Positions 629 to 27,600 are shown, counted from the first letter of the stretch. The stretch: 51,403 nt of DNA from Candidatus Saccharimonadia bacterium (GCA_044449985.1 JBIOIQ010000006.1:1-51403); one strand, 5' to 3'. Notes: a model not told the origin generated them from the sequence alone. A program made the numbers and translations.

Positions 629-3600
629 ATGACTTGGCGTAACAACAGGTTGAATATTCAAAGTTTTAGAAACGGTTATTTTAGGCTATTGATAGTTATT
701 ATCCTGGCGGGTTTGGGAATAGTATTCGGTTTTAAAAATATTTCCGGTGCTTTAGCGGTTAGCGTCAATAGCCCCAATCAAATACCAAATAACGAAAGAG
801 TTTCTATTTCCGCCTATGATAATCCGTTTAATCCGGCCAGTGGTTGTCAGCCTTTCAATGGCAACAGGGAGTACGATACCGTCCCGTGGGTTTCACTCCA
901 ATCTGATGCAACTCAAGATGCTTCCCCTCCCGTTGGTTACACTGTTCCCACCGGAACTACCAGTGTCCCACTTCAAGTTAATGATATGGTTTTTGCATGC
1001 TGGCGAATTTCTAACCAGCCTCCATTCGGAGCTGTTTATCCTGGTTTGCCCAGAGACACAAATGTCATCAACCGTTCTTTAACCCAACAAATTGCGAATG
1101 TTGCATCCGTTACTGCAGATGTAGGAACGATTTCAGGACTTGCGCCGCAGTACACCCCTGGATCAACTATCACAATCCCTCAAAATTTACCAACGAGTTA
1201 TTGGTTCGGAAACCAATCCATACCATTTACCTGGAATGCTCCGAGCGCCTTTGCTCCGGGATCTAGCGTAACGGTGAATATCACTGTACAACTTGTCGGG
1301 GCGAACGTTTTTCACGGAAGTCAGTGGCAATGTTTGGTGCCTTCCGGATTGATAACTTCATCCAGCAACTGGATGCATGATTGTATTACGGGCTCAATCA
1401 CATTCCAAATGTTATTTGTGACTCCCGGAAACAATGCCAGTTGTGGAGTGCCTGTAACTTCCGCATCGATCGTGACTGCCGGTCAATCGTTTACGGCAAC
1501 AGTTCCGATTATTAACAACAGCTCATCAAATTGGCCAAACTCAGGGGTCAATCAATATCGAATGGCGAACGTGTCGACTGATCCGGCAATTCATTCATTT
1601 AATATAACGGCTCCGCCCGCGGCAAATCCTGGGCCATATTCTTTGCCGGGCAATCCTCAGCGTTTCAATTTGCCTGCCCCAGTTCCAATAGGTGCAACTG
1701 CCACCATTACGTATACTATAAACGCACCTGCTACGGCCGGGCTCCATACATATTATTTTGAAATGTTCCAAGAAAACGGTGCGGGGCTGGTATCTCCGGC
1801 GTGCCCAGTTAATATCAATGTTGGCATACCAATCAGTACACCCAATGTACCCCATCGGATTTATGCTGCGAATGTGCTTTCAATTATTCCGCAGCAACTT
1901 CGCGATAGCTTTCAATTTGTGACTAATTTAGTTGCTTATATGTGGCCGGATGCCGGACTTCGCTCACGTGGAGATAATATCCGAAATTTATGGCTGGCCG
2001 GAGTTTGGGGGTACAACGCTCCAGGCGGAGCCGACAATGGCGGAGGACTTAGCACTAATACCGATTTAAATATTATGAATTTGATGAATACTGGTGCCGA
2101 AGCCAACTGCCCTGCTCCAAATGTGCCCGGAGACCAGCGCACTTGTGTTGATCGCTTGCCCCTCGCCTATGTACCCGATCTTGTCGTTGACACTTTTCCG
2201 GCTACGGTCCAGACTCCGAATGGAAATAACTGGCTTTCCATCCGAGATGGAGATTTAGGTACAAACGGTGCTCGGGGTGTGGCAGATAATACGATTCATA
2301 CAACGTGTGGCGCAAATGCAGGATTTTCTAACGCTTGCGGTGGATTTTGGTCAAATTTGGTCGGCCGATATTCTTGCGTACATACACCACTTGATTATCA
2401 GGGGAGGACTACAACTTCCTGGCCGTGTCCATCAATCATGTATCCGGGCAATTACATTAACAATGCTGAAATTTCAAATATACATGTTGGGGCGACAAAT
2501 ATTACATCGATTGACCCGACAAATACCAGTTGGCAAGGAAAGCTGACCAATATTTCGAACCCACAGGCTTCGGTGTTGCAGCCCGATGCGCATTTGGCAG
2601 CGGGAAATGTTGGACAAGGGCCGGTTTCCGGCGGCCCAGCAAATGATGGTGCAGGAGTGCTCGATAATATTAAGAATGTTTCGAGCGTTAGTGTCGTTGC
2701 GAGTGCGGGTGAGTCATTGAATGTTGCCAGTTCGCCGGCAAATCCGGGCGCACCTGTCTCTTTGCCTAATTTTATCGCACCACCTTTCGTCAGTGATCCG
2801 AGCGACGTCCAGGGAACCGCCGATATTACCACCGTATCAAGTATGGTATCCGGTGTTCAGTTTGGCTCACTTCAGGCAGTCAGTCACCTACAGGATGGTC
2901 TCGGTAATGGATATCCTTCACAGACCGAAGAATTATCTTATACAGGCTCAATTAGATCGGCAGCGATTACTCTAAATTGGGATGAATATGTCGACTGGAG
3001 TCAAATCGACGATAAGGGTCATTGGGCGACGACTCGTGCAAGTGGTATTGTGACGGGAATTAATGAAGGTGCGCCAGCAACCTACGTTTATACGCCTCAA
3101 AGTCTTGGCGGTAATACTGGAACTCATCTGGTATCCACGGGTCTACCTGTTGGGTGTGGAGCTCCGGGACACCCAGCCTGTGGGCAGATGTCAGTTTGTA
3201 ACGTTGGTCCGAGTTCAATTTCGGTACTTTCGACAACATTTAATGGGCTAAGTTATTCTCCGAGCGACATAGAAAGTAGATTTGGCTGGACAAACCCAAA
3301 TACAATCCCAGCTTTTGTTACAAATCCAAACTATAACGGAACAGGAATAAGTGATTTTGGGCCGGATCCAACAACTAATTCTGCTTGGGCAACTACGAAT
3401 CCACAACTGCCGATGTGGCAAGATCCAAATATGACCACCATGGATGATAGTTCTTCGTCTTATCCGCTCAATCCAGCTGCGCTTCAACATTGGACATATA
3501 ATTCAACTGATTCGGTTTACACCAATCGCAACATCTACGGGGGAGCAGTTGTGCCGTCTTTTCCAACGGCATATTCAATGGTCGCGGGCGGATCGGGCTG

Positions 3601-4903
3601 TGGTTCAGTCGTTTTTGGCCCCCCTCAAAATCTAACCTATTATCCAGGTGCAACCCAGATTCACGAAGATGGTTCGACTCATGCAGATTTCGGAACGAAT
3701 GGACTTAATCCGGCCACCGGTACTTGTTATGACGGGGCTTGTGATGATCAGGTAGATATAGGCTGGACTTGGGTGAGTGATCTGCAACGGGTTCACTACC
3801 AAAATTCTTGGAAGGATCACACAAGAAACTTAGGTAATCGCGCGGTCGCTCCCGATGTAGGTGCGGTTCCAACCGCCGAATGTAGCTCTGGTTTCGGATC
3901 CCCGAACTATGATTTGTACTTTTTAGGAATTGCAGATACTACTAGTAACTGTTTGAGGCCCGGAAGAGCTGTTGGAACCATCTATAATCCAACATTAAGT
4001 ACCCAAAGCCAAGATGTTTTAGGAGTAGCAGGAATTAGTGGGTACTTTAATGGATCATCAGCCGGATCGGCGTTCCTGTATAGTCAATGTGGGATTATAA
4101 GTAGCTTTGGCAGTGGCGGACAATATCCTCTGTATTACAACAATCCAGCAAGCGATACGACTTACCAAAACGCGGCCACGAATCTTAACCCGACCTGTAA
4201 TGCGATAACTTCGCCAACTGGTAACCCTGCTGTTGATCCAATCCATCACGTGTTTGGTGGAAGCTTTGATTCCGACATATTAGGTATAGCTGCACAGTCA
4301 AATATTGTGTCTCCTCCGACTAACTTGAACGGAAAAATTTATCGAACTGGAAGTGGTGCTACGCTTCAGACCGGTCACGATCTGATAATCAACAGCGATC
4401 CAGTATTCTGCAATGGGTCGGGCACCATTGTTGTTGAAGGTAATCTCTACATCAACAGCAATATTAGCTATTGTCCTGGCTCCGCAAATAAATCAAATAC
4501 TCCTTCGGTTGGATTCATTGTAAATGGCAATATCATCATTGGACCTGCTGCAAGTCCAGATACGGTCAATAATATAGTTGGAGCATATTTTGCAACTGGC
4601 CAATTTCAAACTTTAACAACGGTAATTCCTGGCAATTTTACAACTAGTGATCCGGTTACGGCCTTTAATACGAATCAAAGCTGCACCTCGGTTCACGCAG
4701 CATCTTTAAATGTCTGTGGATTGATAGTCGCCGATAATTTCGATCTTGAAAGACAGCCAAGTGGGGTTGACTTGGCAGCCGGAAGTTTGCCCGAACAATT
4801 TATCTATGATGGACGCGTAGTTGTGAATCCACCTCCAGGGTTTAATAACATCTTAACTGCATCAGCTGTTTGGAATGAAGGAGTACCTTACACGACACCA
4901 TAA
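629..4903 (+). CDS. Large Cys-rich pilus-associated surface protein/adhesin with an NBR1-like Ig domain and a CPR-type C-terminal beta-solenoid-like domain
   Basis: N-terminal TM/signal. The segment AGQSFTATVPIINN...APATAGLHTYYFEMFQENG resembles an NBR1-Ig domain. The C-terminal GTIVVEGNLYINSNI...GFIVNGNIII...PEQFIYD...PPPGF pattern is typical of CPR pilus-locus proteins. It lies directly upstream of pilN. Confidence 0.65.
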   Translation: MTWRNNRLNIQSFRNGYFRLLIVIILAGLGIVFGFKNISGALAVSVNSPNQIPNNERVSISAYDNPFNPASGCQPFNGNREYDTVPWVSLQSDATQDASPPVGYTVPTGTTSVPLQVNDMVFACWRISNQPPFGAVYPGLPRDTNVINRSLTQQIANVASVTADVGTISGLAPQYTPGSTITIPQNLPTSYWFGNQSIPFTWNAPSAFAPGSSVTVNITVQLVGANVFHGSQWQCLVPSGLITSSSNWMHDCITGSITFQMLFVTPGNNASCGVPVTSASIVTAGQSFTATVPIINNSSSNWPNSGVNQYRMANVSTDPAIHSFNITAPPAANPGPYSLPGNPQRFNLPAPVPIGATATITYTINAPATAGLHTYYFEMFQENGAGLVSPACPVNINVGIPISTPNVPHRIYAANVLSIIPQQLRDSFQFVTNLVAYMWPDAGLRSRGDNIRNLWLAGVWGYNAPGGADNGGGLSTNTDLNIMNLMNTGAEANCPAPNVPGDQRTCVDRLPLAYVPDLVVDTFPATVQTPNGNNWLSIRDGDLGTNGARGVADNTIHTTCGANAGFSNACGGFWSNLVGRYSCVHTPLDYQGRTTTSWPCPSIMYPGNYINNAEISNIHVGATNITSIDPTNTSWQGKLTNISNPQASVLQPDAHLAAGNVGQGPVSGGPANDGAGVLDNIKNVSSVSVVASAGESLNVASSPANPGAPVSLPNFIAPPFVSDPSDVQGTADITTVSSMVSGVQFGSLQAVSHLQDGLGNGYPSQTEELSYTGSIRSAAITLNWDEYVDWSQIDDKGHWATTRASGIVTGINEGAPATYVYTPQSLGGNTGTHLVSTGLPVGCGAPGHPACGQMSVCNVGPSSISVLSTTFNGLSYSPSDIESRFGWTNPNTIPAFVTNPNYNGTGISDFGPDPTTNSAWATTNPQLPMWQDPNMTTMDDSSSSYPLNPAALQHWTYNSTDSVYTNRNIYGGAVVPSFPTAYSMVAGGSGCGSVVFGPPQNLTYYPGATQIHEDGSTHADFGTNGLNPATGTCYDGACDDQVDIGWTWVSDLQRVHYQNSWKDHTRNLGNRAVAPDVGAVPTAECSSGFGSPNYDLYFLGIADTTSNCLRPGRAVGTIYNPTLSTQSQDVLGVAGISGYFNGSSAGSAFLYSQCGIISSFGSGGQYPLYYNNPASDTTYQNAATNLNPTCNAITSPTGNPAVDPIHHVFGGSFDSDILGIAAQSNIVSPPTNLNGKIYRTGSGATLQTGHDLIINSDPVFCNGSGTIVVEGNLYINSNISYCPGSANKSNTPSVGFIVNGNIIIGPAASPDTVNNIVGAYFATGQFQTLTTVIPGNFTTSDPVTAFNTNQSCTSVHAASLNVCGLIVADNFDLERQPSGVDLAAGSLPEQFIYDGRVVVNPPPGFNNILTASAVWNEGVPYTTP

Positions 4904-6435: not shown

Positions 6436-7650
6436 ATGCAGCAATTTACCTACCGAGCTAAAGATGAAAAGGGTGTAAATATTTCTGCTCAGGTTGAAGC
6501 AGGGAGTGTTGGTGACGCCGCAAAATTGTTAATAGCCCGAAAATTGTTTCCGTTGAGCATTGAGCCATATAAGGCTAATATATTTAATGGTGGATCACTC
6601 GAAAAACTGCAAAGGGTCACTTCGAAAGACAAAGTTCTTTTTACACGACAATTGGCAACTCTTGTGAAGGCGGGACTTCCTTTAGGAAGAGCTTTGACAA
6701 TACTCCGAGATCAGACCAATAATCCTAAACTTCAGAAAGTTGTGGTAGAAATTAGCGGCAGTATCGAAGGTGGAAGCAGTTTATCCGATGCTTTGAAGAA
6801 ATATCCAAAATATTTTAACAATATATATATAAGTATGGTTCAAGCTGGTGAAGCAAGTGGTAGTCTAGACGATACATTAACACAGCTTGCAGCCCAAGAA
6901 GAGAAAACTGCCGCAGTCAATTCCAAGATAAGAGGTGCATTTACTTATCCTATAGTGGTTCTATCGGTCCTTATTATCGTGGCCGTTCTTATGATTACTC
7001 TAGTTTTACCTCAAGTTGGGAAAATGTATACTGATCTGAAAAAGCCACTCCCATTTCTGACTGCGATACTTCTGGGAACTGCAAATTTGATGATTACCTA
7101 TTGGTATGTGGCGATTTTGTTGCTCATTGGATTAATTGTTGGTGGGGGAGTATATCTTCGGTCCCAAAGTGGAAGGCGAAAATTGGATACTACCAAACTT
7201 AATCTACCTCTCTTTGGTCCACTTATACGGAAACTTTACATGGCTCGACTGGCAAGAACGCTTGGGTCGTTGATTGCTTCGGGAGTTTCCGTGCAAGAGG
7301 CGCTGCTAATATCTTCACGTTCTATGAATAATGTTCTACTCGAAGAAGCACTTCTTAAAATTACCGATAAGGTAAAATCTGGGACGGCTTTATCGACGCT
7401 GGTAGGAGATAATCCCCTGTTCTTACCCTTAGTGGGACAAATGCTAGCAGTGGGTGAGGAAACAGGCACCATTGGCGATAGCCTAAATAAGCTTGCACAG
7501 TATTATGAGGATGAAGTCGATGAAGCCGTCAATAATATATCGACACTTATTGAGCCGGCGACGATGGTTGTTCTCGGAGGGATGGTAGCATTTTTAATTG
7601 CAGCAGTGCTACTTCCGATTTATGGTCTTGTTTCTGTTGTTGGCAATTAA
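6436..7650 (+). CDS. pilC: Type IV pilus platform protein PilC (T2SS F family)
   Basis: FTRQLATLVKAGLPL, AGEASGSL, GAFTYP, VGEETG, LIEP motifs. Confidence 0.95.
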   Translation: MQQFTYRAKDEKGVNISAQVEAGSVGDAAKLLIARKLFPLSIEPYKANIFNGGSLEKLQRVTSKDKVLFTRQLATLVKAGLPLGRALTILRDQTNNPKLQKVVVEISGSIEGGSSLSDALKKYPKYFNNIYISMVQAGEASGSLDDTLTQLAAQEEKTAAVNSKIRGAFTYPIVVLSVLIIVAVLMITLVLPQVGKMYTDLKKPLPFLTAILLGTANLMITYWYVAILLLIGLIVGGGVYLRSQSGRRKLDTTKLNLPLFGPLIRKLYMARLARTLGSLIASGVSVQEALLISSRSMNNVLLEEALLKITDKVKSGTALSTLVGDNPLFLPLVGQMLAVGEETGTIGDSLNKLAQYYEDEVDEAVNNISTLIEPATMVVLGGMVAFLIAAVLLPIYGLVSVVGN

Positions 7651-10399: not shown

Positions 10400-11701
10400 A
10401 TGAGAAATCAAAAGCAAGCTAGAATTATTGTACTTTTCAGGAAAATCTCGTCGCGTTTAGCTATAAACGAGGCCGGTGCTGTTGCAGTTTTCTTTGCCTC
10501 AATCATGGGAATATTATTACTAGTAGGTACAACTTCGGCAGCTCAGTTAATGGTCAGTGAACTAAATCAATCAACCCAAGTTGATCAGTCAGAACAAGCC
10601 TATTTTGCGGCAGAAGCTGGGGTAGAAGATGCACTCTATCATATAGAACAGTCACAGCAGCTTCATCCGTTAATTCAGGTTTCACCATATTGCATATTTC
10701 CTCAGCAGTTTAATGATATGTCAGATTTTTCGCAGTGCTCAGCAAATTTGCAATATTCACCGGCATTGTCGACTGAAGTCGGTGATTACTCCATTCTTGG
10801 GCAAAATTCAGGAAATCTTCCTCAGAATTATGCAGCATTGGCTGATCCATCACCAAATCCGACTGCCGATGCTGCGAATGTAACTTGGCGAAATCGCAAA
10901 GTATATGATTCGACGACATTTTATGTCGGTACTCAACAGAAAGATCAGACTCTCCAAATTGATGCGAGTGATCTAAGGAGACATCGTGCGACAGGTGATT
11001 GCGGAATCGATGCGTTTGGCAACTCCACTGGGCTCGATTGTGATAATGCTACTTCGATTTTTAGCGATTTTGGTGGGCTTGAATATTGTTGGCAAGCGCC
11101 AGCAGGGACTATCCCAAGTATTGAACTTACAACGGTATCTTGGGCGGCAAGTAGTGTAAATCCGCTTACCAGTACTGTAACAAATGTGCTAACAGACAAA
11201 GCACTATTTACGACTCCTCCAGGTGGTGCGACCCAACTCGTTTATGATGGAACAACGTACATCGGCGCTCTATCACCGGCGGCAAGCACTGGATTCGTAC
11301 CAAACTTACCTGGATTTGGAAATAATTGTATTGTGTTTCAGGTCGATAGTGCCAGGCGATATATTTTCAGAATCAAGCCGCTATTTCCAGTAGCTGGTAT
11401 AAATAATGTGAATCAAGCCGGATATGCAGTTCAGTACCAAGCAAATCTTTTCGATACAGTTTCGTCTCCATTTGCGACTGATGGACAGCTTTATATACCT
11501 AACAATGCGTATTACATTGATGTTGTGGGTCAGGCCGGAGATGTGCGACGTAGGATAGTTGCGAAGGTACTTGATAACAGGCAGTTGATTGGAGTTTTCG
11601 ATTATATTCTTTATTCGGGAGATCCGGTAATTCCGTTATGCAAAGCTGGTGTAGCGCCGTATTATAATACTGCGACATGCATAGCTATTCCCGGTCCATA
11701 A
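10400..11701 (+). CDS. Minor pilin (PilX-like) with a large C-terminal domain
   Basis: G|AVAVF lacks Glu5; QAYFAAEAGVEDAL is the PilX N-terminal motif. Confidence 0.8.
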   Translation: MRNQKQARIIVLFRKISSRLAINEAGAVAVFFASIMGILLLVGTTSAAQLMVSELNQSTQVDQSEQAYFAAEAGVEDALYHIEQSQQLHPLIQVSPYCIFPQQFNDMSDFSQCSANLQYSPALSTEVGDYSILGQNSGNLPQNYAALADPSPNPTADAANVTWRNRKVYDSTTFYVGTQQKDQTLQIDASDLRRHRATGDCGIDAFGNSTGLDCDNATSIFSDFGGLEYCWQAPAGTIPSIELTTVSWAASSVNPLTSTVTNVLTDKALFTTPPGGATQLVYDGTTYIGALSPAASTGFVPNLPGFGNNCIVFQVDSARRYIFRIKPLFPVAGINNVNQAGYAVQYQANLFDTVSSPFATDGQLYIPNNAYYIDVVGQAGDVRRRIVAKVLDNRQLIGVFDYILYSGDPVIPLCKAGVAPYYNTATCIAIPGP

Positions 11702-13954: not shown

Positions 13955-15736
13955 ATGTTAGCGGTTGAAACCCAAAAAATCTTCGAACGTCTGTTAGTTG
14001 AACGCAAATTACTGACACAAGCAGATATTGATTTGCTCAGGCTTCAATCGGTCAAAGATCATAAGTCAGTCTTATCACTCATCGCCGAACAAAAACTAGT
14101 ACCGGTTGAAGATTTAGTCCGAGTAACAGCCGAAGCCAATGGAGTGCCGTATGCGAATCTGCATAATGTCACTGCGACAGACAAACTGTTAAACATTTTT
14201 CCTAAAGAACTTGCCAAGAGTTATATGGCAGTTCCGTTTGGACAAATGCGAGGCAGAATTGCCGTTGGCATGCTTGATGCGGCCAATGTTCAGGCCATCG
14301 ACTTTATTAGTCGTAAAGTTGGGCAGCCCGTGGCAGTCTTTATGGTGTCCGAAGACAGTGTTAATCGAATTCTGTCACAATACCGGGCAGATGTCAGTAA
14401 AGAGGTCTCAGACGTAATTGGTGCGGTTGCCTCAATTAAAACCGAGGAGCCAAAGAAGGCTGAAAAAGCTAATAATGCTCAGGTCGCCAATCTGGTCCAA
14501 GATGCACCCATTACAAGGGCGCTCAACACAATTTTAGATTATGCTGCCCAATCAAGAGCCTCAGATATTCATATTGAACCGAGAGAAAAAGAATTAAAAA
14601 TTCGTTTTAGGATTGATGGACTGTTGCAGGATACGATGACACTGCCGAAAGATGTTGAACCGGCACTTATCTCAAGAATCAAGATACTGTCGAATTTAAA
14701 AATTGATGAACATCGGATTCCTCAGGACGGACAGTTTCAAATGCATACGCAGGGCAGAGATATTGATCTGCGTATTGCTATTGCCCCAGTGGTAAACGGT
14801 GAACAGGTAGTAATTCGACTGCTCGATAAAGAAGGTCAAATCCTGACGCTTGACGCTCTCGGATTTCGGGGACAAGCTTTGAAGCTCATCACTGTGGGCA
14901 TACACCGGCCTCATGGTATGACACTCTCGACCGGTCCGACTGGTTCGGGTAAATCAACCACTCTTTATGCCATTATTGCAGCGATTAAGAGCATCACGAC
15001 CAATATAGTGACGCTAGAAGACCCAGTTGAGTATAAGATGGATGGGATAAACCAAATGCAGATCAATCCAGAAGTCGGACTGACCTTTGCTTCGGGTTTG
15101 CGCTCAATTCTGCGACAAGATCCCAACGTCGTAATGGTCGGGGAAATTCGCGATAAAGAAACGGCGGATTTGGCAGTTCAAGCTGCACTCACGGGACACG
15201 TCGTACTCTCCACGCTCCATACCAATTCTTCATCGGGGGTACTGCCCCGACTTCTCGATATGGGAGTCGAACCCTTTTTGATTTCTTCAACCGTCAATAC
15301 CGCCATTGGTCAAAGACTCGTACGAAAGGTGTGTGACAACTGTAAAGAGGAGTATGAAAGTAGCATGGCTGAGACAGAGTCGATTAAAAAAGCGTTGTCA
15401 GGCGCGTTACCTAAAACTAAAGAGGAAGTCAAAGAGAAAGCGGAAGTCGCTGGGTACGACAGCTTGCCTTTAGCTGATCAAAACGCTTATACTTTGTACA
15501 AAGGTAAAGGTTGTAGCGAATGCCAAAACGGCTTTAAGGGTCGTATGGGAATTTATGAGGTATTTGGCATGACGCCTGCAATGGAGAAGCTATTAGTCGC
15601 CCATGCAACGACCACCGAAATTCAAGATCAGGCTCAAAAAGACGGCATGTTAACAATGAAGCAAGATGGATATCTTAAAGCCCTGGCAGGACTTACCACA
15701 CTAGAAGAGGTGGCACGGGTTGCCGCGGATTATTAA
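13955..15736 (+). CDS. pilB: Type IV pilus extension ATPase PilB (GspE family)
   Basis: ASDIHIEP, GPTGSGKSTT, LRQDPNVVMVGEIRD, TLHTN, CxxC...CxxC. Confidence 0.95.
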   Translation: MLAVETQKIFERLLVERKLLTQADIDLLRLQSVKDHKSVLSLIAEQKLVPVEDLVRVTAEANGVPYANLHNVTATDKLLNIFPKELAKSYMAVPFGQMRGRIAVGMLDAANVQAIDFISRKVGQPVAVFMVSEDSVNRILSQYRADVSKEVSDVIGAVASIKTEEPKKAEKANNAQVANLVQDAPITRALNTILDYAAQSRASDIHIEPREKELKIRFRIDGLLQDTMTLPKDVEPALISRIKILSNLKIDEHRIPQDGQFQMHTQGRDIDLRIAIAPVVNGEQVVIRLLDKEGQILTLDALGFRGQALKLITVGIHRPHGMTLSTGPTGSGKSTTLYAIIAAIKSITTNIVTLEDPVEYKMDGINQMQINPEVGLTFASGLRSILRQDPNVVMVGEIRDKETADLAVQAALTGHVVLSTLHTNSSSGVLPRLLDMGVEPFLISSTVNTAIGQRLVRKVCDNCKEEYESSMAETESIKKALSGALPKTKEEVKEKAEVAGYDSLPLADQNAYTLYKGKGCSECQNGFKGRMGIYEVFGMTPAMEKLLVAHATTTEIQDQAQKDGMLTMKQDGYLKALAGLTTLEEVARVAADY

Positions 15737-25489: not shown

Positions 25490-25565
25490 GCCTCAGTAGC
25501 TCAGTGGATAGAGCGCCTCCGTCCTAAGGAGGGCGTCGTAGGTTCGATTCCTACCTGGGGCACCA
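25490..25565 (+). tRNA. tRNA-Arg(CCT)
   Basis: Acceptor GCCTCAG/CTGGGGC, D arm GCTC/GAGC, anticodon arm CCTCC-GTCCTAA-GGAGG, T loop TTCGATT, encoded CCA; 76 nt. Confidence 0.95.
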
Positions 25566-25644: not shown

Positions 25645-25680
25645 AAAAACTGAGCGCCCCCGAACTGGCTAGGTGCTCAG
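25645..25680 (-). terminator. Probable terminator of the pup operon
   Basis: Minus strand CTGAGCACC...GGCGCTCAG (one mismatch) followed by TTTTT. Confidence 0.5.
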
Positions 25681-25691
25681 CTTGGAAGGCG

Positions 25692-26000
25692 CTATCCCAA
25701 AATCGGGACGTGGGTGTAGTTGGTTGATCGAGCGTAGCCGGATCTCAAGAGCATAGCCCTAATTTTGCGTCGGTCGCGAGGTGATCGACGGTCCGGCCGG
25801 ATATGGGCGCTAACCTGAAAAGTTTCATTGTCAGCGTAGACAATTTCCTTGATTTCATCTGCAAAAAATTCGGCTGCCCCAAACGTCACGTCGAGGGGCT
25901 GCCTTTGAAGGACGGTCTGGTCAGCGCAGGTGAAATCGGCAATGAACTCATCAGTCCTCAAGCTTCCGAAATCGATGCTGAGCAGGACTCTTAAACGCAT
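25692..26000 (-). CDS. Hypothetical 102-aa protein directly downstream of pup
   Basis: Its ATG immediately follows the pup TAG; a terminator-like hairpin follows; no family recognised. Confidence 0.6.
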   Translation of the reverse strand: MRLRVLLSIDFGSLRTDEFIADFTCADQTVLQRQPLDVTFGAAEFFADEIKEIVYADNETFQVSAHIRPDRRSPRDRRKIRAMLLRSGYARSTNYTHVPILG

Positions 26001-26198
26001 CTATTGTCCGCCCTTTTGGACGTAGCTTCGAACGAATTCCTCGGCGTTTTCACTAAGGACTTCGTCGATCTCATCCAGGAGATCATCGAGCTCCGCTTTG
26101 ATCTTATCGGCTGTGTCGGTCGGCGGTATTTCGATTTCTTCGGTTGTTGTGGTGGAAGTGGCACGTGGACGAGCTCTTTCCTGCTCACGTTTGGCCAT
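26001..26198 (-). CDS. pup: Prokaryotic ubiquitin-like protein Pup
   Basis: C-terminal ELDDLLDEIDEVLSENAEEFVRSYVQKGGQ matches the Pup signature; disordered N-terminus; GGGAGA upstream of the ATG. Confidence 0.93.
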   Translation of the reverse strand: MAKREQERARPRATSTTTTEEIEIPPTDTADKIKAELDDLLDEIDEVLSENAEEFVRSYVQKGGQ

Positions 26199-26463
26199 CA
26201 AATTCTCCCAACATATTGTAGCGGGTGCTACGGAATGACCCCGTTCTACCCATCGTACATTCTTTATGCTTGGTTTAACAGCTCCTTTTCCAGATCTAGT
26301 TAAATTATGCTTAAGAAAAGCTCTATCGCTGGATCTTTAAAAGTTTTTTTATCTCGCGATGCTTGAACAACTCGACACCCGCAATCAATTACGTTACCAT
26401 TAACGGGATGAGTTTTTACGTTTAGCGTGTAAACTAGATATATTATTAGTTTTTTGCGAGAGA

Positions 26464-27600
26464 TTGGAGATTATTTTGGCCGACGAGACCCCTGAAGTAA
26501 AAGACAATACCGATAACAAAACCAAGTCAGAGGATCAACCGGAAAAAAAGGCTGAAGAAGTCTCGAAAAAGGCCGAAACGACTGAAAAGACGCTCAACAT
26601 GGAGAAAGTTGAGACGAAAACTACTGAGTCGAAAAAGAGCAGCACTTCATCAACCAAAAAACCAAAGCCTCAACTAAGTATGCCCAGCAAAAAAGCCATG
26701 ACATGGATTGGTAGCGCAATAGTAGCTGCAATTATTGTCCTTCTCGTTGTCTTTGGAGTACTTATTTATAAATTTAAATCGGATAGCCCCCTGGTTTATG
26801 ATGTGGCTAAATATGTACCGTATCCGGTAGAGCGAGTAAACGGTAGTTTTGTTAGCTATGGAGATTATTTATTTGAGCTGAAATCTGTCAAACAATACTA
26901 CGAAAGCCAAACTACACAATCGGGTCAGGCTGGGATCGATTTCAATTCAGCCGACGGTAAGGCCAAGCTAGCTCAGCTCAGAATCCAAATAATGGCTCAG
27001 CTGACGCAGGACACGGTTACTAAGCAACTGATATCGAAGAATAAGATTAACGTCACATCTAAGCAGGTTACCGATCAGGTAAATCAAATTGTGAATGCTT
27101 CGGGTGGGACGGCGAAAGTCAAAAGTGTGCTTGAGCAGTATTATGGTTGGACGATTAACGACTTAAAAGGCCAAGTTAAATTCCAATTGCAAAAGCAGGC
27201 TCTCCAGACCAAACTTTCAAGCGACAACTCTCTTAATGCCCAGGCCAAAGCCAAAGCTAATAGCATTCTTGCTCAGCTTAGTAGTGGTGCGGATTTTGCC
27301 ACGCTTGCAAAAAAATATTCGCAAGATTCCTCGGCTAGTAATGGGGGAGACATGGGTTTCTTTAGCAAAGGACAGGTTGGTGATACCACATTCGATAACA
27401 CTGCTTTCGGTCAAACTCCAGGACAGGTTTCGGGTGTAATTCATACTAAATTTGGCTACCAAATCATAAAAACAATTGAATTCAATAGCGACAACAGCCA
27501 GGTTCATGCCGCACAAATCTTGGTTGAACCAATCGATTTCACCCAGTTCATTACCGATCAGACAACGGCAGCCAAAGTTACCAAGTACTTTAGCGTCTAG
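26464..27600 (+). CDS. Membrane-anchored PrsA/SurA-type peptidyl-prolyl isomerase
   Basis: Charged N-tail, TM, SurA-N, parvulin GADFATLAKKYSQD...GGDMGFF...TKFGYQIIK; start uncertain. Confidence 0.85.
   Translation: MEIILADETPEVKDNTDNKTKSEDQPEKKAEEVSKKAETTEKTLNMEKVETKTTESKKSSTSSTKKPKPQLSMPSKKAMTWIGSAIVAAIIVLLVVFGVLIYKFKSDSPLVYDVAKYVPYPVERVNGSFVSYGDYLFELKSVKQYYESQTTQSGQAGIDFNSADGKAKLAQLRIQIMAQLTQDTVTKQLISKNKINVTSKQVTDQVNQIVNASGGTAKVKSVLEQYYGWTINDLKGQVKFQLQKQALQTKLSSDNSLNAQAKAKANSILAQLSSGADFATLAKKYSQDSSASNGGDMGFFSKGQVGDTTFDNTAFGQTPGQVSGVIHTKFGYQIIKTIEFNSDNSQVHAAQILVEPIDFTQFITDQTTAAKVTKYFSV

Follow-up and report, generated by a model that had tools for sequence, protein, structure and literature searches.

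A canonical Pup gene without pupylation enzymes in a Patescibacteria genome

What use could a bacterium have for a protein tag that it has no enzymes to attach? Pupylation is regarded as a pathway complete in itself, which belongs to Actinomycetota and a small number of other phyla, and the C-terminal half of actinobacterial Pup is the part bound by Dop, PafA, and Mpa. The CPR lineage is thought to live on other bacteria. Both come together in a stretch of 51,403 nucleotides from a small draft genome (G000), analysed here as a whole and called the window below, in which a first-pass annotation made from the sequence alone noticed an actinobacterial-type Pup with no companion genes. A Pup ending in GGQ requires deamidation by Dop, after which PafA ligates it to lysines, and Mpa/ARC binds the same half of the protein (for pupylation in general, see PMC3511204 and PMC8223512). 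We are highly confident in the descriptive part of our answer, namely that a real and intact Acidimicrobiia-type pup is present in a CPR genome that lacks these enzymes, and we discuss below where the gene may have come from and what its product could be doing.

The pup gene and its surroundings

The gene, its partner, and the neighbouring features are the following.

25490..25565, plus strand: tRNA-Arg(CCT), found by ARAGORN and Rfam RF00005, converging with ORF102 and 127 nt from its stop
25646..25693, minus strand: terminator-like hairpin that begins within the ORF102 stop codon and is followed by UUUUU
25692..26000, minus strand: ORF102, an orphan 102-aa ORF whose ATG (25998-26000) abuts the pup stop codon
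26001..26198, minus strand: pup, 65 aa, with ATG at 26196-26198, stop codon TAG at 26001-26003, and C-terminus GGQ
26205-26209, minus strand: Shine-Dalgarno-like GGGAG, 6 nt before the pup ATG, read from the sequence
26215-26220, minus strand: -10-like TACAAT upstream of pup, read from the sequence
26464-27600, diverging from pup: gene for a membrane-anchored PpiC-type isomerase, by Pfam

Translation of 26001..26198 on the minus strand gives the full 65-residue protein, MAKREQERARPRATSTTTTEEIEIPPTDTADKIKAELDDLLDEIDEVLSENAEEFVRSYVQKGGQ, which ends in ...DDLLDEIDEVLSENAEEFVRSYVQKGGQ; the ORF list also offers a TTG at 26201 as an alternative start. The Pfam Pup profile (PF05639) matches this ORF over profile positions 6-69 of 69 with an E-value of 3.5e-20 and 73.1 bits (71.5 bits in the whole-genome scan), well above the curated cut-off of 27 that defines membership and far beyond chance. 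Its length falls within the 60 to 70 residues or so typical of Pup, and its C-terminal, helix-forming half closes with GGQ, one of the two endings (GGQ or GGE) of the family. A 30-sequence Pup alignment has 13 invariant columns, and the protein matches every one of them, including D38, L41, D45, V47, L48, A52, F55, V56, Q61, K62, G63, and G64. Over its last 30 residues, it departs from the consensus of 80 Pups, most of them from Acidimicrobiia, at two positions only, one of them being a serine where 99% of the 80 references have glutamate. The protein has a net charge of -8.5, and its N-terminus is charged rather than hydrophobic, with no signal peptide or export signal seen by eye. It is the sole Pup match in the assembly. 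Thus, the 65-residue protein with a Pup-type end described in the first-pass annotation is indeed a Pup. That annotation was also right about the tRNA nearby and about its hand count of some 52% GC over a lower-GC background: 25692-26198 has a GC content of 0.519, whereas 507-nt windows of the genome average 0.449 (sd 0.038). The excess in this patch, which comprises pup and ORF102, is modest; only 4.0% of the 6839 genome windows reach the same value.

The lower 309 bases of the range considered in that annotation correspond to ORF102, which it did not mention. No bases intervene between the TAG of pup and the ATG of this second frame, whose product has an acidic first part (residues 1-66, pI 4.2) and a basic tail (residues 67-102, pI 11.9). 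A search of 5.8 billion proteins returned one relative, which has the same length, is 67% identical without gaps, and comes from a contig no longer than 915 nt; this speaks for ORF102 being a real coding sequence. Other searches gave nothing comparable: no Pfam or PHROG family, no longer relatives, no relatives in two scans of metagenome contigs, no match in an Atlas feature search (the structural neighbours were mixed), and, for an AF2 model with a pLDDT of 72, no similar fold in the PDB at E<=0.001. Among the 53 genomes of the order, ORF102 is found in G000 and in none of the other 52. A 1582-aa RTX/Calx-beta repeat protein (E 3.4e-6), the only match besides itself when the ORF102 profile was run against 1.84 billion representatives, was rejected at an hhalign probability of 0.8%.

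From its sequence, pup-ORF102 looks like a compact bicistronic unit that runs from the Shine-Dalgarno site through pup, the TAG|ATG junction, and ORF102 to the terminator hairpin. The hairpin folds at -22.5 kcal/mol, with a z-score of -3.67 relative to 200 shuffled sequences, and was missed by a simple terminator scan that allowed short loops only; a sigma-70 scan of the pup strand found no two-hexamer promoter. The neighbours of pup are the PpiC-type isomerase gene, ORF102, the tRNA-Arg gene, which is the sole tRNA or Rfam match in the window, and a gene for NDK. The signs of a tRNA-borne genomic island were not found at pup, given that there is no flanking repeat longer than 15 nt and no integrase ORF between 25566 and 26463. 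More than 10 kb away from pup, the window carries type IV pilus genes of the PilC and PilB types (6436-7650 and 13955-15736), and beside these lie two long frames, at 629-4903 (1424 aa) and 10400-11701 (433 aa), with no Pfam family at E<=1e-5.

As for the organism, the assembly comprises 692,228 bp in 18 contigs, with a GC content of 0.449, 37 tRNAs, and a completeness of 76.34%. The Atlas clusters closest to the NDK encoded nearby are assigned to Minisyncoccota (that is, Patescibacteria or CPR), and the window also encodes F-type ATPase subunits, G6PD, a 6PGDH-like protein, MnmG, a Mur ligase, and PilB/PilC-type proteins. G000 is therefore a member of the Patescibacteria and no actinobacterium, and the apparent CPR genome of the first-pass annotation, of 0.69 Mb and GC 0.45, is one. 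The class is probably Saccharimonadia, because the TM7-580F primer matches perfectly the 16S rRNA of another member of the class (G108), which is a lead and not a proof. The G000 assembly contains no 16S rRNA; in that of its relative G001, the same primer has no match within two mismatches, and a second primer, 1177R, has a near-universal site. On this basis, the earlier mention of Saccharibacteria is probably correct, for a small order of 53 species genomes rather than the main Saccharimonadales-sized group.

Pupylation genes in the genome, the order, and the class

The absence of pafA, dop, arc/mpa, and prcAB, which the first-pass annotation reported for the window, extends to all 692,228 bp. 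Neither PF03136 (PafA/Dop) nor PF00227 (20S proteasome PrcA/PrcB) has a match anywhere in the assembly, and the sole match to ARC/Mpa (TIGR03689) is an FtsH-sized AAA frame of 616 aa with 152 bits against a cut-off of 505. Even custom profiles, which were built from 20 CPR ligase-family proteins and 80 actinobacterial Dop/PafA proteins and were run on all six frames with hmmsearch --max, gave a best E-value of 0.41. The dop-pup-prcB-prcA neighbourhood is absent from the locus, where tblastx shows no trace of dop or prcB, and the same search found no remnant of either gene beside pup in five other loci of the order; in the Acidimicrobiales chromosome that served as a positive control (G401), two proteasome genes do lie beside pup. 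With nothing over cut-off, the Pup of G000 is an orphan and, judging by gene content, the organism cannot run any step of pupylation with genes of its own.

Given that G000 is only 76% complete, its relatives matter for this conclusion. An ordinary pupylation system might be split across contigs, with the enzymes encoded in the roughly 24% of the genome that was not assembled, and such separation has a precedent in the class, since in G214, G106, and G207 Pup and a ligase-family gene are on separate contigs or at a large distance from each other. However, Pup occurs in 6 of the 53 genomes of the order (G000, G001, G006, G012, G017, and G021), and neither PF03136 nor PF00227 has a match in any of these six, nor does ARC exceed its cut-off in any of the five relatives. 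One of them, G001, belongs to the same family as G000 and is a single contig with 98% completeness, in which Pup is likewise found without the enzymes. The chance that one gene would be missed in all six genomes by incompleteness alone is about 3e-7, and we thus consider hidden enzymes very unlikely.

Beyond the order, Pup exceeds its cut-off in 10 of 348 sampled genomes of the class, for a total of 16 of 401. A survey of the CPR at large points to this class as well: three of 401 genomes in a phylum-wide sample have Pup, all three from the same class, and 376 phylum genomes with family codes outside the class sample gave a single match, below the cut-off. PF00227 has no match in 14 other Pup-bearing CPR genomes, a set that leaves out G333. 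PafA/Dop-family genes (PF03136) are found in 39 of the 401 class genomes, 33 of which have no Pup. The ten ligase-family genes that we scored match both the PafA and the Dop models with 77-260 bits, and we regard them as a divergent clade because they fall so far short of the 551 and 492 bits required by the equivalog models. Outside the order of G000, six of the ten Pup-bearing genomes also hold this family, again with no PF00227 match in any of the six. The ligase-family gene directly follows pup in G213 and G240 and converges with it in G108, and the pup genes of these three genomes have a recipient-like GC3 of 0.37-0.41. The Pup terminus tends to go with the number of ligase-family genes, as three genomes combine GGE with one such gene (G207, G213, and G240) and two combine GGQ with two (G106 and G108); G214, with GGQ and one gene, is the exception in this pattern of five in six.

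The most complete example is G108, a single contig, with the following genes.

C1:80573-82129: ARC, by TIGR03689 with 800 bits (cut-off 505)
C1:761361-762596: ligase-family gene (PF03136)
C1:880294-881445: ligase-family gene (PF03136)
C1:881515-881724: pup, encoding a GGQ end (locus L103)

As PF00227 has no match in G108, the gene set of this CPR bacterium resembles a pupylation system of the Corynebacterium type. The first-pass annotation had suggested that the Pup of G000 could be part of an unrecognised CPR tagging system; our results indicate that a proteasome-less system of this type does exist in the class, to judge from pup beside a ligase gene in three genomes and ARC in one of them, but not in G000 or in any of the six Pup-bearing genomes of its order. 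In fact, Pup and the ligase family never occur in the same genome of this order. The ligase family is instead found in 6 of the 26 genomes of another family (f4), none of which has a Pup detectable with Pfam, and there it lies between a gene for a VanW/PG-binding protein and lexA (L007-L013; for example, L008:1387-2766).

Two further observations were made in the class. In three genera of family f21 (L099, L100, and L102), pup has a gene for an M24 Xaa-Pro aminopeptidase on one side and uvrC on the other, a conserved site distinct from that of the order of G000. In G133 and G137, ORFs of 124-130 aa (L105:1345-1719 and L106:512-904) give sub-cut-off Pup matches and encode an LLD-x-ID-x-VL helix like that of Pup. 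Beyond this helix, their C-terminus differs from that of Pup and contains Cys, and the ORFs may represent another protein with a Pup-helix-like domain.

Origin, selection, and history of the gene

A segment of the protein had looked Acidimicrobiia-like in the first-pass annotation, and database searches agree. A scan of one genome per species yielded 447 confirmed Pup-encoding stretches, and the best 80 of these, which are 52-78% identical to the Pup of G000, come from 66 Acidimicrobiia, 10 entries named "Actinomycetes bacterium", three Actinomycetota, and one MAG labelled Acidobacteria. Among 5.8 billion proteins, the best full-length match other than itself is 72% identical, and the matches that carry names belong mostly to Acidimicrobiales or Acidimicrobiaceae. 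Acidimicrobiia Pups, at 60-72% identity, are thus its nearest relatives. Relative to the 30-position Acidimicrobiia-type C-terminal consensus, the Pups of the order have 1-6 mismatches and those of other orders 6-10. In all six loci of the order, homology to actinobacterial loci is confined to pup and does not extend to flanking sequence. These comparisons suggest that the gene was acquired horizontally from an Acidimicrobiia-like member of the Actinomycetota.

A trivial version of such an origin would be an artefact, in which an actinobacterial fragment was misjoined into a CPR contig, as the local rise in GC to 0.52 might hint. However, the patch is about 0.6 kb long and is embedded in a 51-kb contig that continues for 25 kb, with CPR-type genes, in each direction; real Acidimicrobiia pup genes have a very different GC3 (0.81 on average in 80 reference donor-type genes, against 0.53 here), the database holds no closer protein than the 72% match, and nothing but pup itself resembles actinobacterial loci. 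Moreover, five relatives carry pup, two of them within single-contig or near-closed genomes. A chimera or contamination is, in our view, extremely improbable.

The same GC3 value of 0.53, set beside the 0.42 +/- 0.06 of 447 long ORFs from G000, shows a gene that has covered most of the distance from donor to recipient. Over the C-terminal 32 codons, comparison with 12 other pup genes gives saturated synonymous differences (pS 0.61-1.0) and few nonsynonymous ones (pN 0.04-0.25), with a dN/dS of 0.02-0.21 where it can be estimated; part of the path compared runs through donor lineages, in which the gene should be under selection in any case. Toward the N-terminus, pN reaches about 0.5, close to pS. 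Saturated silent sites and a GC3 that has drifted toward the recipient, together with a conserved C-terminal half, lead us to infer that purifying selection has kept the helix-forming, GGQ-ended half of the G000 pup.

The history of pup within the order is more difficult to read. In G001 and G017, the gene sits between an HU gene (Pfam Bac_DNA_binding) and tRNA-Pro(TGG), in G012 it follows HU, and in G006 it precedes a tRNA-Pro-Gly-Arg cluster. G000 retains HU and a tRNA-Pro-Gly-Arg-His cluster on contig C1, but its own pup is elsewhere, with ORF102. At the position of pup in G001 and G017, there is a 666-nt gap between HU and the tRNA (G000:C1:55425-56090) without a convincing gene, in which blastn and tblastx detected no pup remnant. 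A 63-aa ORF within this gap was considered as a decayed pup and dismissed, since it scores no better than shuffled sequences. Synteny between G000 and G001 (M16 peptidase and NDK) stops just before the tRNA, and no borders of an insertion can be drawn. In G006, just past the tRNA cluster that follows pup, we also noted a gene with a recombinase domain and a zinc-ribbon recombinase domain (L004:1873-3114), which may mark a mobile element at the cluster.

The HU/tRNA-Pro site common to the relatives argues for one old acquisition. Two other observations argue against it: four of the six pup genes (L002-L005, from G012, G021, G006, and G001) keep a donor-like GC3 of 0.75-0.79 in loci with a GC content of 0.45-0.53, and the nearest neighbour of every Pup of the order is an Acidimicrobiia Pup. 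The Pup of G001, for instance, shares 92% protein and 79% DNA identity with that of a groundwater Acidimicrobiia MAG, with a pS of 0.80. In the phylogeny, which is compatible with either one or several transfers, the six Pups scatter among Acidimicrobiia, but good support is limited to 5 of 121 inner branches, and by an AU test the six could still form one clade (p 0.66). In this tree, a phylum-wide actinobacterial sample without group labels served only as unlabelled outgroup rows. One tentative idea is that repeated replacement from host DNA would keep donor-like codon usage at a conserved site.

Alternatively, the gene could be a relic or a passenger, either left over from a lost module of Pup and ligase or taken up recently with host DNA, and now nearing loss with little or no function. 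Its distribution is patchy, like that of the ligase family (16 and 39 of 401 class genomes, respectively); pup and ligase genes adjoin in G213, G240, and G108; the ancestral-looking HU-[pup]-tRNA-Pro site is empty in G000; and the intactness of the four genes with donor-like GC3 may reflect their recent arrival. The copy in G000, however, is largely ameliorated in composition and still has only two C-terminal mismatches in 30 positions, it is equipped with a Shine-Dalgarno site and a terminator, and, out of thousands of donor genes, pup alone recurs, beside HU/tRNA-Pro in three to four families. We therefore regard a relic as unlikely.

Possible functions and known systems

If the gene is under selection, what would its product act on? 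We lean, tentatively and at somewhat less than even confidence, toward a role in which Pup works on the pupylation machinery of its host, or by means of it, the host being an Acidimicrobiia-like actinobacterium; the first-pass annotation had likewise suggested an effector or decoy aimed at host pupylation. Under this proposal, a host-derived Pup would be retained by selection because it acts through host enzymes, as a mimic that host Dop, PafA, and Mpa accept or that titrates them, and ORF102 could be a lineage-specific accessory; export of Pup and its entry into the host would be necessary steps, both of them wholly inferred. The main reason to favour it is that G000 has no Dop, PafA, or Mpa, and yet exactly the half that these proteins bind is conserved. 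It also agrees with the recurrence of Pup in 16 of 401 class genomes and with pup having been picked out, in the six loci of the order, without flanking dop or prcB. On the other hand, we know of no route by which such bacteria deliver proteins into the cytoplasm of a host, the literature that we searched contains no link between Saccharimonadia and Acidimicrobiia as hosts, one glutamate conserved at 99% has been replaced by serine, and the f4 genomes (6 of 26) keep ligases without Pup. Elsewhere in the class, Pup goes together with CPR-encoded PafA/Dop-family genes, and the Pup of G000 may have begun in such a self-contained system whose ligase was later lost.

Alternatively, Pup could work within its own cell and independently of any ligase, as a disordered, acidic protein that binds and regulates a CPR protein, for instance ORF102 with its basic tail or the FtsH-like AAA protease, and is never conjugated. 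The tight coupling of pup to ORF102, a conserved orphan, would fit this possibility, as would the charge complementarity between Pup (-8.5) and the ORF102 tail (pI 11.9), the purifying selection on the helix-forming half, and the presence of one generic AAA protein in G000. A predicted complex of ORF102 and Pup scored 0.01, which speaks neither for nor against such binding. However, ORF102 is found in one genome of the order and so cannot account for the retention of Pup in the other five, and the conserved residues are those of Actinobacteria, down to a terminal GGQ that a binder which is never conjugated would not need. A function of this kind is conceivable, but we think it rather doubtful.

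The host-directed proposal can be extended to a more elaborate scenario, which we offer as a speculation that is improbable in its full form. Epibionts of the Saccharimonadia class would deploy a Pup matched to their host as an inter-bacterial mimic; on entering an Acidimicrobiia-like cell, it would be deamidated by Dop and ligated by PafA, or it would titrate Mpa, Dop, and PafA, and protein turnover in the host would be rewired in favour of the parasite. Re-acquisition or conversion from host DNA would keep the match, and, if repeated, it would account for the donor-like GC3 at a conserved site in several families.

The Pup of G000 is, in itself, an ordinary member of its family, and what is new is the setting: a canonical Pup under selection, without its enzymes, in a CPR genome, and recurrent in the class. 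We found no report of pupylation in Saccharibacteria or Patescibacteria in the literature searched, in which supplementary files could hold mentions, and, judging by titles, searches that combined "prokaryotic ubiquitin-like protein" with Patescibacteria or PafA with Saccharibacteria returned nothing relevant; the same literature has no report of horizontal gene transfer between Saccharimonadia and Acidimicrobiia. A canonical Pup appears to be maintained without its enzymes and recurs in about 4% of the sampled genomes of the class, part of which has proteasome-less pupylation genes of its own. If the protein acts on host machinery, this would be the first bacterial parasite carrying the protein tag of its host, and it would suggest that an uncultured CPR order finds its hosts among the Acidimicrobiia.

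Several known systems help to place these observations. The closest is the Pup of Acidimicrobiia, with which the G000 protein shares its 65-residue length, an N-terminus of the MAxREQ type, a disordered-looking variable middle, a C-terminal stretch of 30 residues that departs twice from the consensus, and the GGQ end. It differs in context, as its gene has neither dop upstream nor prcB, prcA, and pafA downstream but is followed by an orphan ORF, and in belonging to a 0.69-Mb CPR genome with a GC3 of 0.53 instead of 0.81. Corynebacterium has Pup, Dop, PafA, and ARC without a 20S proteasome, and our control with C. glutamicum gave matches for Pup, Pup ligase, and ARC and none for PF00227. The lack of a 20S proteasome is common to both, and G108, in the same class, likewise has Pup, two PafA/Dop-family genes, and ARC with no PF00227; in G000 and the other Pup-bearing genomes of its order, in contrast, ligase, deamidase, and ARC are missing too.

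Some Gram-negative phyla have a Pup-like tag, UBact, which is described as encoded with its own PafA/Dop-like and proteasome genes. It offers an analogy in that it would be another short, Pup-related tag outside Actinomycetota, but the protein of G000 scores as a canonical Pup and stands alone. Finally, virus-encoded ubiquitin genes are parasite copies of a host protein tag. We found Pup in none of 50,697 phage records, and the delivery of the G000 Pup to a host is hypothetical, so that the comparison differs in these respects; even so, the two cases would be analogous in that a dependent organism possesses the conjugatable tag of its host without the enzymes for conjugation.
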